64,000 nt of DNA, taken from assembly GCA_963824165.1 (NCBI GenBank), contig CAWGOM010000017.1:153278-217277 (forward strand), given 5' to 3'. The first letter of the stretch is position 1; each line of letters begins with the position of its first letter. The position numbers and the translations under genes were made by a program. The notes beneath the pieces were generated by a model. The model was not told the origin of the DNA and ran no database searches. It saw only the letters and a program-made list of their open reading frames with translations. The stretch is from an uncultured Acidobacteriota bacterium. Lineage in GTDB: Bacteria; Acidobacteriota; Thermoanaerobaculia; UBA5066; Gp7-AA6. Shown piece after piece: positions 29,011 to 33,037 of this stretch.

Positions 29011-29673
29011 TCAGTGCAGGTGCGCGTGGACGCGTCCCCGGACGTGCACGAGGCCCTCCCGCAGGAACCACGGGACCATCAGGAGCGAAAGAGCCGGATC
29101 GACCCAGTGCGGCGCGGCGAGGAGCCCGCCGATCATCGCCAGCATCGTCAGGCCCGAGTCGATCGAGCAGGCGATCGACTCCTTCGCCTCCGCGGCCAGC
29201 CCCTTGCTTCCGAGGCTGCGGCTCGTCTTCCACTTGTAATAACCCACGACCGGCATGCCGAACGTGGCGAAGATGGTCAGCAGCAGGCCGAGCACGCTCG
29301 GCTCGACGTGATTGCCCGCGACGAGCTCCCAGACTCCGCGGGTCAGCGTGTAGGCCGCGAGGCCCAGGAACGAGACGCCGATCCAGCGCGCGAGCATCTG
29401 GTCGCGGCGCGCGTGGTCCTCCTCCTCGTCGGCCAGGTGGCGCAGGTGCCGCACGGCGAGGAAGGCCGCCCCCCCCTCGATGACGCTCTCGATCCCGAAG
29501 GCGAGCAGCGCCAGGCTTCCCGTTCGGGCCGCCTCGAACAGGGCCAGCCCGCCTTCGCCGAAGACGTGAACGAAGGTCAGGCCGAGGAGCCAGCGCATGC
29601 GCCGGCTCAGGGCCTCCGAGCCGGCCGGTCCGGCGGACCCGGGCACGGCGAGGGCGTGGGGATCGGAGCTCAC
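29011..29673 (-). CDS. Cation diffusion facilitator-like exporter (TMEM163-like, no C-terminal cytosolic domain)
   Basis: GSLALLAFGIESVIE, AEAKESIAC, WVDP; six TM segments; His-rich tail HVRGRVHAHLH. Confidence 0.75.
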   Translation of the reverse strand: MSSDPHALAVPGSAGPAGSEALSRRMRWLLGLTFVHVFGEGGLALFEAARTGSLALLAFGIESVIEGGAAFLAVRHLRHLADEEEDHARRDQMLARWIGVSFLGLAAYTLTRGVWELVAGNHVEPSVLGLLLTIFATFGMPVVGYYKWKTSRSLGSKGLAAEAKESIACSIDSGLTMLAMIGGLLAAPHWVDPALSLLMVPWFLREGLVHVRGRVHAHLH

Positions 29674-29743
29674 GCGGGCATTCTACGCAGCGGCGGGGGC
29701 CCCGGCGGAATACAATGGGCGCGCGCCCGCTTGGGTAGCTCGA

Positions 29744-30076
29744 ATGCTGCGTCGAATGAGGCTCGCGCCCGCCGTGCGGGCCGCCCTGCTGGCGGCCGGG
29801 GCCCTGGCCCTGCTCGCCGCCTTCGGCCTCCACCCCGAGGGCATCGGCGCCGGCGGCTTCGCCTCGCACCGCGGGATGTCGAGCGCTCACCTGGACGAAG
29901 CGCCCCACGCTTGCCCCGCCTGCCTCACGCACACCGCGGCCCTCGCCTCGCCCCCCGTCGATCCCCTGGCCGCCGACCTCGCCGGAACGCGCGCCGCGTG
30001 GCAGCCCGGGAACTCCGGTGCGTCCCGGTGCGCGGTCCTCGACCTCGCCGGCCGCTCCCCTCCCGTCCACGCGTAG
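29744..30076 (+). CDS. DUF2946-like leader protein (signal/TM segment, HACPAC, C-terminal GRSPP); putative metal-responsive arrest peptide
   Basis: ATG 29744 or 29756; hydrophobic N-terminus; HACPACLTH; RSPP three residues before the stop; TACAAT at 29711-29716. Confidence 0.7.
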   Translation: MLRRMRLAPAVRAALLAAGALALLAAFGLHPEGIGAGGFASHRGMSSAHLDEAPHACPACLTHTAALASPPVDPLAADLAGTRAAWQPGNSGASRCAVLDLAGRSPPVHA

Positions 30077-30125
30077 AGCCCGCGGCCGCATTCCGCGGCC
30101 CCGGTTCCGCGCGCTGACAGGGAGG
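30059..30125 (+). promoter_or_regulatory. SD-sequestering hairpin (translational attenuator)
   Basis: CCTCCC (30059-30064, Pro-Pro codons) pairs with GGGAGG (30120-30125, SD); inner GTC/GAC, CGCG/CGCG, GAGCC/GGTTC and GGCCGC-ATTCC-GCGGCC pairs. Confidence 0.6.
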
Positions 30126-30129
30126 AAAC

Positions 30130-31275
30130 TTGAGAGTCCCAACAGTTCTGGTTTTCGTCACGGCGTTTCTCGCCGGCGGCGCGGCACGGGCGCAGGAAAC
30201 GCCGCCTCCGCCGCCGACACCGACACCGACGGAGGCGCCGGCCTCCGAGCCGACGCCCGTACCCGGGCCCGCCCCGGCCCCCGCGGCGGCCCCGGCCGTC
30301 AATCCGACGTTCTTCAACCCCGCGATCGCCGTCATCGGCAACTTCCTCGTTTCCGCCGGCCGCAATCCCGTCCAGCCGTCGCCGACGTTCCAGGTCCGCG
30401 AGTCGGAGATCTCGCTCCAGGCCGTCGTGGACCCCTACGCCCGCGGCGACTTCTTCCTGTCCTTCAGCAACGAGGGCGTGGAGATCGAAGAGGCTTTCGT
30501 CACGTTCCTGAGCCTGCCCTGGCAGACGCAGGCCAAGGGCGGAAAGTTCAAGATGCAGTTCGGCAAGATCAACACCCTGCATCTCCACATGCTGCCGTGG
30601 GTCGACGAGCCGCTGCCGATCGACAACATCCTGCTGTCCCCGGACACGTGGGCCGGCGAGGGCATCTCCGCGTCGAAGGTGATTGCGCTTCCGGGCGACA
30701 CGTTCTCGGAGTTCTACTTCCAGGTCATCGACGGGACGTCCGGCGAAGGGCTCTTCGTGGCGCCCCAGAAGAGCGACCTGACCTACAACGGCCAGTACCG
30801 CGCCTACCGCGACTTCGGCGACGACCACAACGTCGAGCTCGGGTTCAGCTATGCCTACGGGCACAACGGGACGTCGGAGACGAACACCACCCAGCTCGAG
30901 AACGTGCACTTCGTCTATCGCTGGAAGCCGCTGCAGGGGCAGCCGTACCGGTCCTTCATCCTGCGGAGCGAGTACTTCTGGAGCCAGCGCGAACAGCCCG
31001 ACGGGAGACAGGACGCCCAGGGCTTCTTCGTCGCCGGCGACTACCAGCTCGGACGCCGGTGGTTCACGGGAGCGCGCTACGAATTCGCCGACCGGGCGAC
31101 CGACGCCACCCTTCGCGACAACGGCGTCGCCGCCACCCTCACGTTCATGCCGAGCGAGTTCTCGATGCTGCGCGCCGAGTACCGCTACCGCGAGTACGCC
31201 CCGGGGATCAAGGCCAACGAGGCCTTCCTCCAGATCCAGTTCGCCATCGGCGCCCACGGCGCCCATCCATTTTGA
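30130..31275 (+). CDS. Putative outer-membrane beta-barrel for metal uptake
   Basis: Signal peptide, Pro/Thr-rich linker, alternating beta-strand pattern, HLHMLPW, C-terminal QIQFAIGAHGAHPF; upstream of a Zn/Mn binding protein. Confidence 0.7.
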   Translation: MRVPTVLVFVTAFLAGGAARAQETPPPPPTPTPTEAPASEPTPVPGPAPAPAAAPAVNPTFFNPAIAVIGNFLVSAGRNPVQPSPTFQVRESEISLQAVVDPYARGDFFLSFSNEGVEIEEAFVTFLSLPWQTQAKGGKFKMQFGKINTLHLHMLPWVDEPLPIDNILLSPDTWAGEGISASKVIALPGDTFSEFYFQVIDGTSGEGLFVAPQKSDLTYNGQYRAYRDFGDDHNVELGFSYAYGHNGTSETNTTQLENVHFVYRWKPLQGQPYRSFILRSEYFWSQREQPDGRQDAQGFFVAGDYQLGRRWFTGARYEFADRATDATLRDNGVAATLTFMPSEFSMLRAEYRYREYAPGIKANEAFLQIQFAIGAHGAHPF

Positions 31276-31283
31276 GGTCGCAA

Positions 31284-32207
31284 ATGAAGCGCATCGCAAC
31301 GGCCCTCGTTTCGCTCCTCCTGACGGCATCGCCGGCTCTCGCGGCGGTGCAGATCGTCACGAGCCTCCAGGATCTGGCCTCGATCGCAAGCGCCGTCGGC
31401 GGCAAACGGGTCGAGGCCTTCGCCCTCGCGAAGGGATATCAGGATCCCCACTTCGTGGAGCCCAAGCCCTCGTTCATCCTGAAGCTCTCGCGGGCCGATC
31501 TGCTCATCGTCGCCGGGCTCGAGCTCGAGATCGGCTACCTGCCGCCCCTGATCGACCAGAGCCGCAACGAGAAGATCCGCCCGGGCGGGCCCGGTTACCT
31601 CGACGCCTCCGCCGGCTGCGACATCCTCGAACGCCCCACCGGGGTCGTGACCCGGGCCATGGGCGACGTCCACCCCTTCGGCAACCCGCACTACTGGCTC
31701 GACCCGGAGAACGGCCGCGTCATCGCGCGGTCGATCGCGGCGCGCCTTTCGAAGCTCGATCCGGCCGGCGCGGCCGACTACGCGGCGAACCTCGCCGCCT
31801 TCGAGACGAAGCTGACGGAGGGCCAGAAGCGCTGGGAGGCGGCGCTCGGGCCCTACGCCGGAACGGAGGTCGTCACCTACCACAACTCCTGGCCGAACTT
31901 CCTGAAGCGCTTCAAGCTCGTCGCGGCCGGGTACGTCGAGCCCAAGCCGGGCGTGCCGCCCTCGCCGGCGCACACGGTCGAGCTCATCGACATGATGCGG
32001 GCGAAGAAGATCCCGGTCATCCTGATGGAGCCGTACTTCGACCGGAAGACCTCCGCCCAGATCGCCGAGAAGACGGGGGCGGCGCTCCTCGTCTTCATTC
32101 CGTCGGTGGGCGGCGTCCCCGAGGCGAAGGACTACTTCGGCCTCTTCGACTACGACGTCAAGTTGCTGGCCGATGCCCTGGCGGCGAAGAAGGGAGGCCC
32201 CCGTTGA
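31284..32207 (+). CDS. Zn/Mn ABC substrate-binding protein (ZnuA/TroA family)
   Basis: QDPHFVEPKPS, GLELEIGYL, DVHPFGNPHYWLDP, TYHNSW, EPKPGVPPSPAH. Confidence 0.92.
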   Translation: MKRIATALVSLLLTASPALAAVQIVTSLQDLASIASAVGGKRVEAFALAKGYQDPHFVEPKPSFILKLSRADLLIVAGLELEIGYLPPLIDQSRNEKIRPGGPGYLDASAGCDILERPTGVVTRAMGDVHPFGNPHYWLDPENGRVIARSIAARLSKLDPAGAADYAANLAAFETKLTEGQKRWEAALGPYAGTEVVTYHNSWPNFLKRFKLVAAGYVEPKPGVPPSPAHTVELIDMMRAKKIPVILMEPYFDRKTSAQIAEKTGAALLVFIPSVGGVPEAKDYFGLFDYDVKLLADALAAKKGGPR

Positions 32208-33037
32208 CCGTTCTCGAAGTCCTCCTGCCGGCGTTCGTCGCGGGCCTCATCCTCACCGGCATCCACGCGTACCTCGGCGTGCACGTCGTCGAGCGCGGGG
32301 TCATCTTCGTCGACCTGTCGCTCGCGCAGATCGCCGCGCTCGGAACGACCGTCGCGTTCCTCGCCGGCTTCGAGGCCCACTCGGAGCTCGGCCACCTCTT
32401 CGCCCTCGCCTTCACGCTCGTGGGCGCCGCCATCTTCGCGTTCGTCCGCCCCCACAACCGGACGCGCGTGCCGCAGGAGGCGGTCATCGGGATCGTGTAC
32501 GCGGTCGCCGCCGCGGCCTCGATCCTGGTGATGTCCAAGTCGACCCGGGAGACCGAGCACCTCAAGGACATGCTCGTCGGCAACATCCTGTCCGTATCGT
32601 GGGCGGAGCTGCGGCACACCGCCGTCCTCTACGCGCTCATCGGCCTCTTTCACTTCTTCCTGCGGCGGCGTTTCCTGCTGATCTCCATGAACGAGCCCGA
32701 AGCCGTCCGGCAGAGCGTCCACGTTCGGTTCTGGGACTTTCTCTTCTACGTGTCCTTCGGCGTGGTCGTGACCTCATCGGTGCCGATCGCGGGCGTGCTC
32801 CTGGTGTTCTGCTACCTGATCGTGCCCTCGGTCACCGCGATGCTCTTCGCCGACCGCCTCGGTCCGCGGCTGGCGATCGGCTGGTCGATGGGGGCCGTCG
32901 TCTCGGCGACCGGGGTCGGGCTTTCGTACCTTCTCGACCTGCCGACCGGGGCGACGATCGTCGCCACCTTCGGCGCGGTGCTCGTGCTCCTGGCCGCGGT
33001 TCGCTGGGCCGTGCGGCCCCGGGCGGCGGCCGCCTAG
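32204..33037 (+). CDS. Zn/Mn ABC permease (ZnuB family)
   Basis: HAYLGVHVVERGVIFVDLSLAQIAALG; multi-TM; TTG overlaps the upstream stop. Confidence 0.88.
   Translation: MTVLEVLLPAFVAGLILTGIHAYLGVHVVERGVIFVDLSLAQIAALGTTVAFLAGFEAHSELGHLFALAFTLVGAAIFAFVRPHNRTRVPQEAVIGIVYAVAAAASILVMSKSTRETEHLKDMLVGNILSVSWAELRHTAVLYALIGLFHFFLRRRFLLISMNEPEAVRQSVHVRFWDFLFYVSFGVVVTSSVPIAGVLLVFCYLIVPSVTAMLFADRLGPRLAIGWSMGAVVSATGVGLSYLLDLPTGATIVATFGAVLVLLAAVRWAVRPRAAAA

Follow-up and report, generated by a model that had tools for sequence, protein, structure and literature searches.

A 64,000-nucleotide stretch of DNA from an uncultured Acidobacteriota bacterium (contig CAWGOM010000017.1 of assembly GCA_963824165.1, forward-strand positions 153,278 to 217,277; hereafter the window, with a G+C content of 70%) contains a 110-residue leader open reading frame (ORF) that heads an operon encoding a porin-type β-barrel, a ZnuA-family substrate-binding protein and an ABC-3 permease. 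Judging from sequence conservation, RNA modelling and analogy with characterised systems, we think it reasonably likely that this leader is a metal-responsive arrest-peptide translational switch for the porin-ZnuA-ABC-3 operon and a relative of CruR and CutF. The codons of its putative arrest motif are complementary to the porin gene's Shine-Dalgarno (SD) sequence.

A conserved leader peptide with a candidate metal site and a RAPP-like motif

The leader and its parts are as follows (coordinates are those of the window).

29744-30076, plus strand: leader ORF, candidate arrest-peptide upstream ORF (uORF), 110 residues from the ATG at 29744, translation MLRRMRLAPAVRAALLAAGALALLAAFGLHPEGIGAGGFASHRGMSSAHLDEAPHACPACLTHTAALASPPVDPLAADLAGTRAAWQPGNSGASRCAVLDLAGRSPPVHA
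29747-29827, plus strand: N-terminal membrane or signal helix as modelled by AlphaFold2 (AF2), residues 2-28, after the basic MLRRMR
29822-29839, plus strand: conserved FGLHPE, residues 27-32, on the helix's outer end
29906-29932, plus strand: conserved HACPACLTH, residues 55-63 (H-x-C-x-x-C-L-x-H), candidate metal site
29924-30052, plus strand: spacer from CxxC to R-S-P-P, residues 61-103, 43 residues of fixed length and variable sequence
30050-30064, plus strand: G-R-S-P-P, residues 103-107 (GGC CGC UCC CCU CCC), RAPP-like arrest motif

A sequence-only reading of this region had described a leader with a signal or transmembrane segment, HACPACLTH, and GRSPP shortly before the stop codon, and each of these parts is indeed present. 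The ORF looks coding, because its G+C content by codon position (0.79/0.64/0.92) follows a pattern shared with the three genes behind it; an alternative in-frame ATG at 29756 would give a product of 106 residues. After RSPP there are three residues, VHA (GUC CAC GCG), and then the stop codon UAG. The AF2 model, computed from an alignment of 82 sequences, gave predicted local distance difference test (pLDDT) values of 86-93 for helix 2-28 and 53-66 for the remainder, and beyond the N-terminal helix it contained no confidently predicted folded domain. Because the membrane helix alone is confident, the geometry of the candidate metal site is unreadable from this model.

A word-indexed search returned 17 relatives of the leader, each of about 110 residues, and searching 1.84 billion representative proteins with a profile returned 105 clusters at 50% identity, nearly all of them 105-126 residues long and aligned from end to end. 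In six-frame searches the leader was single-copy in 74 of the 81 genomes of the window's GTDB family, covering at least nine genera, with weaker copies in the sister family and essentially none in the rest of the phylum; the named records that carry it are metagenome-assembled genomes (MAGs) of Acidobacteriota/Thermoanaerobaculia. The leader family is lineage-specific, unannotated and in no protein-family database. When the whole genome was scanned for small ORFs that terminate in R[AGS]PP, 16 matches came up, all of which look non-coding except the leader itself. Three MAG loci (L012, L013 and L015) have leader, barrel, ZnuA and permease split over several frames, with many short tblastn pieces; these look like indel errors of long-read assembly and not real pseudogenes.

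Conservation within the peptide is confined to a few islands. Among 29 sequences, F27, G28, H30, P31, E32, H55, C57, C60, L61, G103, R104, P106 and P107 are invariant and H63 is conserved in at least 90%; among 82 representatives with at most 50% mutual identity, C57, C60, P106 and P107 remain invariant, and G28, L29, H30, E32 and P33 are conserved in at least 90%. The C-terminal motif of these representatives is RAPP in 57, RSPP in 23 and LSPP in 2, directly preceded by Gly in 73 and followed by a tail of exactly three residues in 69. RSPP, which the sequence-only reading had put forward as a variant, is therefore correct for the window but is the form of one clade in a family that mostly has RAPP. 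The spacer from CxxC to the Arg of the motif is 43 residues long in 79 representatives and 42 in the other three, with almost no conservation of sequence, and the linker from GLH to CxxC measures 24-34 residues with a single outlier of 42. Outside the islands the leader diverges to 24-30% identity; since neighbouring genes are 65-95% identical across loci where the leader is 40-80% identical, it is fast-evolving save for these few positions. Because the spacer is fixed in length and free in sequence, and lies between the Cys/His site and the C-terminal R-x-P-P, we would expect it to act as a ruler from the sensor to the peptidyl-transferase centre, which fits better than a folded domain.

The arrest-motif codons pair with the porin Shine-Dalgarno sequence

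The RNA elements that bear on translation of the porin gene, together with a conserved box upstream, are listed here.

30059-30067, plus strand: anti-SD strand CCUCCCGUC, codons of Pro106, Pro107 and Val108, paired with 30116-30118 and 30120-30125 in the minimum free energy (MFE) structure
30120-30132, plus strand: SD GGGAGG (30120-30125) and TTG start codon (30130) of the barrel gene
30059-30125, plus strand: SD-sequestering hairpin, closing helix conserved, interior clade-specific
29707-29716, plus strand: conserved GGAATA[C/G]AAT with the -10-like TACAAT, 27 nucleotides (nt) 5′ of the leader ATG, invariant in 17/17 aligned loci

Folding of RNA 30040-30140 gave an MFE of -51.6 kcal/mol, compared with -38.3 +/- 3.6 for dinucleotide shuffles (z -3.7; 0/200 as stable). 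In this structure CCUCCC at 30059-30064 pairs with 30125-30120, and GUC at 30065-30067 pairs with GAC at 30118-30116, so that sequence and fold agree on the complementarity between the Pro-Pro codons (CCT CCC) and the SD that the sequence-only reading had pointed out. The same reading had described a single long imperfect hairpin, and the fold of the window reproduces it together with the inner stems it listed, but the interior differs from clade to clade: the window's clade forms one long hairpin, whereas members of the RAPP clade form two or three stems. We accordingly rejected the long hairpin as a conserved unit, as only its closing helix is conserved. The peptide motifs, the gene context and the SD:anti-SD helix were present again at every related locus examined, which is more than chance would give. 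Across 28 loci, RNAalifold recovered CCUCC:GGAGG as the sole conserved long-range helix, kept in 27-28 of the 28, and in single-sequence MFE folds all five SD bases were paired to the S/A-P-P codons in 22.

Codon usage at the motif was counted over 33 non-identical loci and compared with neighbouring genes as background. The first Pro codon is CCU in 32/33 loci against 7% in the background, the Ser codon is UCU in 19/26 against 5%, and the Ala codon is GCU in 7/7 against 4.5%, while CCG is avoided as the second Pro codon (3/33, against 49%). The codons of the neighbouring Gly and Arg vary synonymously (GGC/GGG/GGA and CGC/CGG/CGT/CGA). Because the S/A-P-P codons are restricted to rare forms while those of G and R drift, two layers of selection are visible in the alignment, one on the amino acids G-R-[S/A]-P-P and one on the string [U/G]CU-CCU-CC[C/U], which is complementary to GGAGGAG. 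At one locus (L016) the match extends to a perfect 12-mer, GCUCCUCCUGCC/GGCAGGAGGAGC. At two others the RAPP codons are not pyrimidine-rich and form no anti-SD (L047, CGU GCA CCG CCG; L062, AGG GCU CCC CCG); there the SD pairs instead with a tract (CCCUCU or UUUCCUCCU) that lies past Pro-Pro and before the stop codon, still within the roughly 15 nt that would be protected by a ribosome with Pro106 in the P site. The RNA argument thus rests on the choice of rare codons, on recurrence of the helix over different interiors, and on this relocation of the anti-SD.

Scans for known elements returned little. An Rfam scan of 29400-30400 gave two chance-level matches (E 0.09 and 0.29), which indicates no known riboswitch or leader in that interval. 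No terminator-like site was found in a scan for intrinsic terminators and U-tracts, nor was a promoter found at the GGAATA[C/G]AAT box in a strict sigma-70 consensus scan, and on the basis of these two scans a classical terminator attenuator is ruled out. The box, whose flanks vary and contain indels among the 17 aligned loci, is nonetheless the probable operon promoter.

Divergent leaders were also observed in the sister GTDB family (loci L067-L074), where they head a barrel-ZnuA pair wherever downstream matches were found. These peptides have FGHVDG in place of FGLHPE, a His-rich PDHPxHAPF, EHACAAC, and SGRSPP followed by three residues, and their UCN-CCU-CCN codons likewise stand opposite a GGAG-type SD.

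A ribosome at the arrest site is predicted to free the Shine-Dalgarno sequence

Accessibility of the SD was evaluated by partition-function modelling of 27 loci, in which an arrested ribosome was represented by blocking the stretch from -12 to +15 about the first Pro codon. In free mRNA the unpaired probability of the SD had a median of 0.003 (0.001 in the window); with the arrest site blocked it rose to a median of 0.17 (0.545 in the window), as anticipated by the sequence-only reading, which had suggested this comparison. A block of the same size placed 30 nt upstream left the value at a median of 0.002 (0.001 in the window). Among 250 other genes with a GGAGG SD in the same genome the median was 0.23, and 6% fell below 0.003. 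Since the free-mRNA values lie in about the lowest 6% of this background, the porin SD is, in these models, unusually and consistently masked.

Comparison with known arrest leaders

The statements of the sequence-only reading about CruR, CutF and RAPP motifs agree with the literature (PMC9426467, PMC12992588). CruR (Bp2923, a DUF2946 protein of B. pertussis) has an export signal, a CXXC motif and RAPP three residues from its C-terminus, with a CXXC-RAPP spacing in CruR/DUF2946 of 45 residues, +/- 1-2; RAPP is required to keep the downstream TonB-dependent transporter on, copper acting through CXXC relieves the arrest so that Rho terminates transcription, and five residues added to the spacer abolish regulation (PMC9426467). 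Arrest by CruR has been demonstrated in vitro (PMC12992588). The acidobacterial leader resembles CruR in being the first gene of a metal-uptake operon and in its N-terminal export signal, its invariant CxxC, its length-conserved spacer to R-x-P-P (45 residues in CruR, 43 here), its RxPP three residues from the peptide end, and its predicted lack of structure; in both, arrest would keep the downstream genes on, as is known for CruR and proposed here for the leader. The membrane or export helix, an N-in/C-out feature of DUF2946, is common to all members of the leader family.

There are also clear differences. Unlike CruR, the acidobacterial leader has FGLHPE and flanking His residues, and its motif is RSPP in the window's clade and RAPP in most of the family. 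Whereas CruR precedes a TonB-dependent copper transporter, the leader precedes a porin and a ZnuA/ABC-3 importer of zinc type, and its intergenic region is structured and about 55 nt long, in contrast to the 162-nt, Rho-dependent region behind cruR. The RAPP codons of CruR are frequent ones, whereas the leader uses rare codons and the motif itself is the anti-SD.

Relationship to DUF2946 was assessed with PF11162 (gathering score 23.7 bits), a check that the sequence-only reading had proposed and whose threshold neither the window peptide nor its family reached. The window peptide gave no match at E<=1, and a six-frame PF11162 search of the window's own genome did not pick up the leader; sub-threshold matches were obtained for 12 of 18 close members (best E 0.014) and 13 of the 82 representatives (best E 7.9e-4). 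Profile comparison by hhalign against four acidobacterial DUF2946 proteins gave a probability of 41% and an E of 2.8e-4, over 17 columns around the CxxC only. The leader family is CruR-like in architecture, and by sequence it is probably either a very divergent branch or a convergent analogue of DUF2946. Four loci from other Acidobacteriota (L043-L046) encode PF11162-matching proteins, three of them over the cut-off, with HCxxC, a spacer of 43-44 residues and RGPP or RAPP, and the genes downstream of them start in the manner of TonB-dependent receptors. From this context the classical CruR arrangement exists in the phylum, separate from the ZnuA-linked family.

The likeness to CutF is more limited. 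CutF of the R. capsulatus cutF-cutO system has CxxxC and a PPP motif dependent on elongation factor P, compared with CxxC and RSPP/RAPP in the acidobacterial leader (PMC9973294; bioRxiv 10.1101/2025.02.05.636593); the leader has CxxC where CutF-like peptides have CxxxC, and only two prolines where they have a C-terminal PPP. High copper induces stalling in CutF and thereby turns on a detoxifying oxidase, whereas the leader stands before an uptake operon, and for that reason the opposite polarity is expected.

As in SecM-secA, ApdA/ApdP and RQH (PMC7897499, PMC10987492, PMC10951233), an R-A/G/S-P-P core lies near the C-terminus of a small exported protein, and the layout proposed here is also theirs, in that arrest exposes a downstream SD otherwise paired with the 3′ region of the uORF. 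Those systems monitor Sec or YidC and control secA, secDF or yidC, whereas the leader precedes metal-uptake genes and, unlike them, has a conserved Cys/His site whose distance from the motif is fixed. The features that define the RAPP-type class are all found in the leader: R-[A/G/S]-P-P near the C-terminus of a small protein, a localisation signal, a co-directional downstream gene and, in silico, a downstream SD within a structure that is broken up when a ribosome occupies the arrest site. RSPP is permissive for arrest in ApdA/ApdP and among the accepted query motifs (PMC12992588, PMC10987492); it emerged from stalling screens of random libraries and ranks with the most depleted tetrapeptides of bacterial proteomes (PMC12992588). 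RAPP and RGPP cluster near the C-termini of small exported proteins that precede diverse genes, copper genes included (PMC12992588). Two such proteins of S. lividans, SLIV_16130 and SLIV_18480, have RAPP/RGPP and conserved Cys/His residues, precede metal-related genes and have been proposed as metal sensors (PMC12992588); they belong to another phylum, lie before copper resistance and YcnI genes, and are unrelated in sequence to the acidobacterial leader.

The survey of Fujiwara et al. 2025 searched for RAPP and RGPP only and dropped uORFs whose downstream gene was of unknown function (PMC12992588), and the absence of the acidobacterial family from it may be explained by the unannotated porin that comes next and by the RSPP of the window's clade. 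In the open-access literature that we searched, no paper was found that connects a leader of this kind with a ZnuA-type operon.

Proposed mechanism

In the switch that we propose, the leader would be inserted or exported co-translationally by means of its N-terminal helix. From the established behaviour of RAPP-type motifs, we infer that peptide-bond formation would stall when R104-S105-P106 is on the P-site tRNA and Pro107-tRNA is in the A site. The stalled ribosome would then cover the S-P-P codons through to the stop codon, which are the nucleotides otherwise paired to the porin SD 55 nt downstream, and the modelled geometry suggests that the SD would be exposed and the porin translated. 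ZnuA and the permease would presumably follow by coupling, given the 9-nt gap after the porin and the 4-nt overlap between them. With a short arrest or none, the ribosome would terminate, the helix would re-form and the operon would be translationally off.

The analogy with CruR and the fixed 43-residue ruler suggest that metal is sensed on the nascent chain. The length of the arrest would be set by the nascent H-x-C-x-x-C(-L-x-H) site 43 residues from the motif, possibly together with His30/Glu32, and relief of the arrest by metal binding (most likely of Zn, given the His3Asp ZnuA), by export pulling or by both would turn the operon off. In the arrested chain 46 residues separate Cys60 from the residue in the P site, a distance that puts it just beyond the ribosomal tunnel; sensing has been proposed to occur in the cytoplasm at the tunnel exit for CruR and in the periplasm after translocation for CutF. 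Physiology alone indicates that the metal is probably Zn and that it probably shortens the arrest, and the genes downstream, for a porin, a ZnuA of Zn type and an ABC-3 permease, argue against copper.

A more far-reaching proposal, which we put forward tentatively and regard as somewhat doubtful, is that the family represents the first zinc-responsive nascent-peptide sensor, in which Zn would be read by the ribosome independently of Zur. A Cys2His2-like site (His55, Cys57, Cys60, and His63 and/or His30) would take up Zn during translation, on emerging from the ribosome or translocon, and the folding force from this binding would release the RSPP/RAPP arrest; as the arrest codons are the anti-SD, filled A and P sites would translate one-to-one into initiation on porin-ZnuAB.

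Alternative explanations

Several observations count against a programmed, metal-responsive arrest. No obvious SD precedes the leader itself. Stalling at RAPP-like motifs depends on sequence context and is not universal (PMC10987492). Although the pairing is kept in nearly all orthologs and written in rare synonymous codons, the covariation that the sequence-only reading had suggested seeking between anti-SD and SD was absent from the RNAalifold analysis of 28 loci, since the core of the helix is invariant, and duplexes between cognate strands were only weakly better than non-cognate ones (mean -2.1 kcal/mol, 15/25 loci). At five loci (L016, L018, L024, L029 and L040) the modelled footprint fails to free the SD, which is recaptured by other C-rich tracts. 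With PF11162 below threshold and the hhalign match weak, DUF2946 membership is not established by sequence, and zinc, probably the metal concerned, is indicated only by the ligand pattern of the downstream substrate-binding protein. Finally, much the same anatomy is predicted by plain translational coupling, because the stop codon lies only three codons past Pro-Pro and a terminating ribosome would also cover the anti-SD.

Such coupling is the alternative that fares best, although we consider it improbable. Any ribosome in the course of translating the leader or terminating on it would open the SD helix transiently, with no programmed arrest, and the peptide would be a small functional metal-binding protein of the membrane or periplasm, for instance a chaperone or assembly factor for the porin or ZnuA, whose conserved C-terminus serves the protein and not the ribosome; the invariant FGLHPE and HxCxxC could form a real metal site in such a mature protein. 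It leaves aside, however, that the motif at the C-terminus coincides exactly with the RAPP/RSPP arrest core, with a spacer of CruR type and a three-residue tail, and that such motifs are strongly depleted in ordinary proteins (PMC12992588). AF2 predicts no folded domain, and a spacer of fixed length and free sequence suits a ruler better than a folded protein.

We see only a slim chance that regulation is instead mainly by transcriptional attenuation of the CruR type, in which the stalled ribosome shields the mRNA from Rho, release leads to termination before the porin, and the hairpin is a pause site or otherwise secondary. This mechanism has been shown for CruR, the closest characterised relative (PMC9426467), and the leader contains, in its second half, a C>G bubble at 29858-30013 (GC skew -0.29 to -0.41) like the rut region of cruR; C>G skew is, however, common in coding strands at 70% G+C. 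The intergenic region of 47-67 nt, G+C-rich and structured, also disfavours Rho loading compared with the 162 nt of B. pertussis, and the codon-level selection is specifically for an anti-SD. A Rho layer and a translational layer could coexist.

Least probable, in our judgement, is that the leader monitors export or periplasmic redox state, with release by Sec/YidC pulling or by a Cys57-Cys60 disulfide and an operon that responds to secretion stress or oxidative folding capacity: the conserved N-terminal export helix, the precedent of ApdA, ApdP and SecM as force-released monitoring substrates (PMC7897499, PMC10987492), the disulfide formation proposed for CutF release (bioRxiv 10.1101/2025.02.05.636593) and the RAPP uORFs upstream of DsbA and thioredoxin genes (PMC12992588) would agree with this, but the genes under control encode a porin and an ABC importer of Zn type and not Sec, YidC or Dsb components, the divergent flanking gene encodes a CDF-like metal transporter, and H-x-C-x-x-C-L-x-H plus His30 resembles a metal site. 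None of these alternatives explains the RAPP-type motif, the fixed ruler and the arrest-site anti-SD as economically as the metal-responsive arrest switch.

The operon and its neighbours

The genes that surround the leader are the following.

30130-31275, plus strand: outer-membrane porin-type β-barrel, 381 residues, TTG start at 30130, weak Pfam BBP2 match
31284-32207, plus strand: ZnuA-family substrate-binding protein with a Zn-type site, PF01297 6e-53, top NCBIfam match AztC
32204-33037, plus strand: ABC-3 (ZnuB-type) permease, PF00950 1e-36, final gene of the operon, convergent with ribF
29011-29673, minus strand: divergent CDF-like membrane protein, weak Cation_efflux/CDF matches

These domain matches, together with synteny in all loci, bear out the ABC-type uptake operon, of Zn/Mn type, that the sequence-only reading had placed downstream. 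ZnuA starts 9 nt past the porin stop codon and the permease overlaps ZnuA by 4 nt. In the first 40 loci fetched the gene order was the same in all 40, namely thioredoxin(-), CDF-like(-), leader(+), barrel, ZnuA, permease(+) and ribF(-); leaders only 24-30% identical to the window peptide still head a barrel-ZnuA(-ABC-3) operon, as does the sister-family leader (FGHVDG...HACAAC...SGRSPP).

In an alignment the DPH, NPH and YHNSW of the ZnuA-like protein match the three motifs that contain His in Synechocystis ZnuA (2ov1/1pq4). From what is known of ZnuA, AztC and PsaA structures, we take these His residues to be ligand positions and the Asp of FDR to be the fourth, and the pattern His3(+Asp) is presumably that of the zinc type, as opposed to the His2-Glu-Asp of the manganese type. 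The AF2 model of the porin (pLDDT 72; predicted template modelling score, pTM, 0.67) is all-β, and its best Foldseek matches are OprP (2o4v, E 3e-11) followed by porins of OprO/OmpT type. Two invariant His motifs were observed in the porin, N-T-L-H-L-H-x-L-P-W-V-D-E-P-L-P at about residues 148-163 (HLHxLPW) and the C-terminal I-G-A-H-G-A-H-P-F (GAHGAHPF), with residues 147-164 forming a low-confidence loop in the model; these motifs may form a metal-selective constriction or plug. The operon lacks a gene for an ATP-binding cassette (ABC) ATPase in every locus examined, and a search for one elsewhere in the 68%-complete genome with the ZnuC model gave only generic ABC ATPases (at most 88 bits, against a cut-off of 306).

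The CDF-like gene adjoins the leader in most loci that reach upstream, with L051 as an exception, and probably belongs to the same metal-homeostasis locus. On the minus strand, TAGAAT (plus-strand motif GCATTCTACGCAG, region 29674-29700) lies 6 nt before its GTG. This TAGAAT is conserved in most aligned loci, the distance between it and the -10 box of the leader varies by tens of nt, and the CDF-like gene looks leaderless.

Significance

To our knowledge, copper is the only metal for which experiments have shown control by nascent-peptide arrest, in CruR and CutF. Zinc uptake is regulated at transcription by Zur. The family described here, from a little-studied and uncultured acidobacterial lineage, is conserved and places a CruR-like sensor and putative arrest module ahead of an ABC importer of Zn type that comes with a porin of its own. 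Surveys of RAPP uORFs by motif and annotation miss families such as this one in which the next gene is unannotated. Stall codons that are themselves the anti-SD would be a compact natural design that can be tested with reporters and is potentially a small metal-responsive translational switch. If the proposed mechanism is true, control by nascent-peptide arrest would be extended to a further metal, a further class of transporter and a further phylum.

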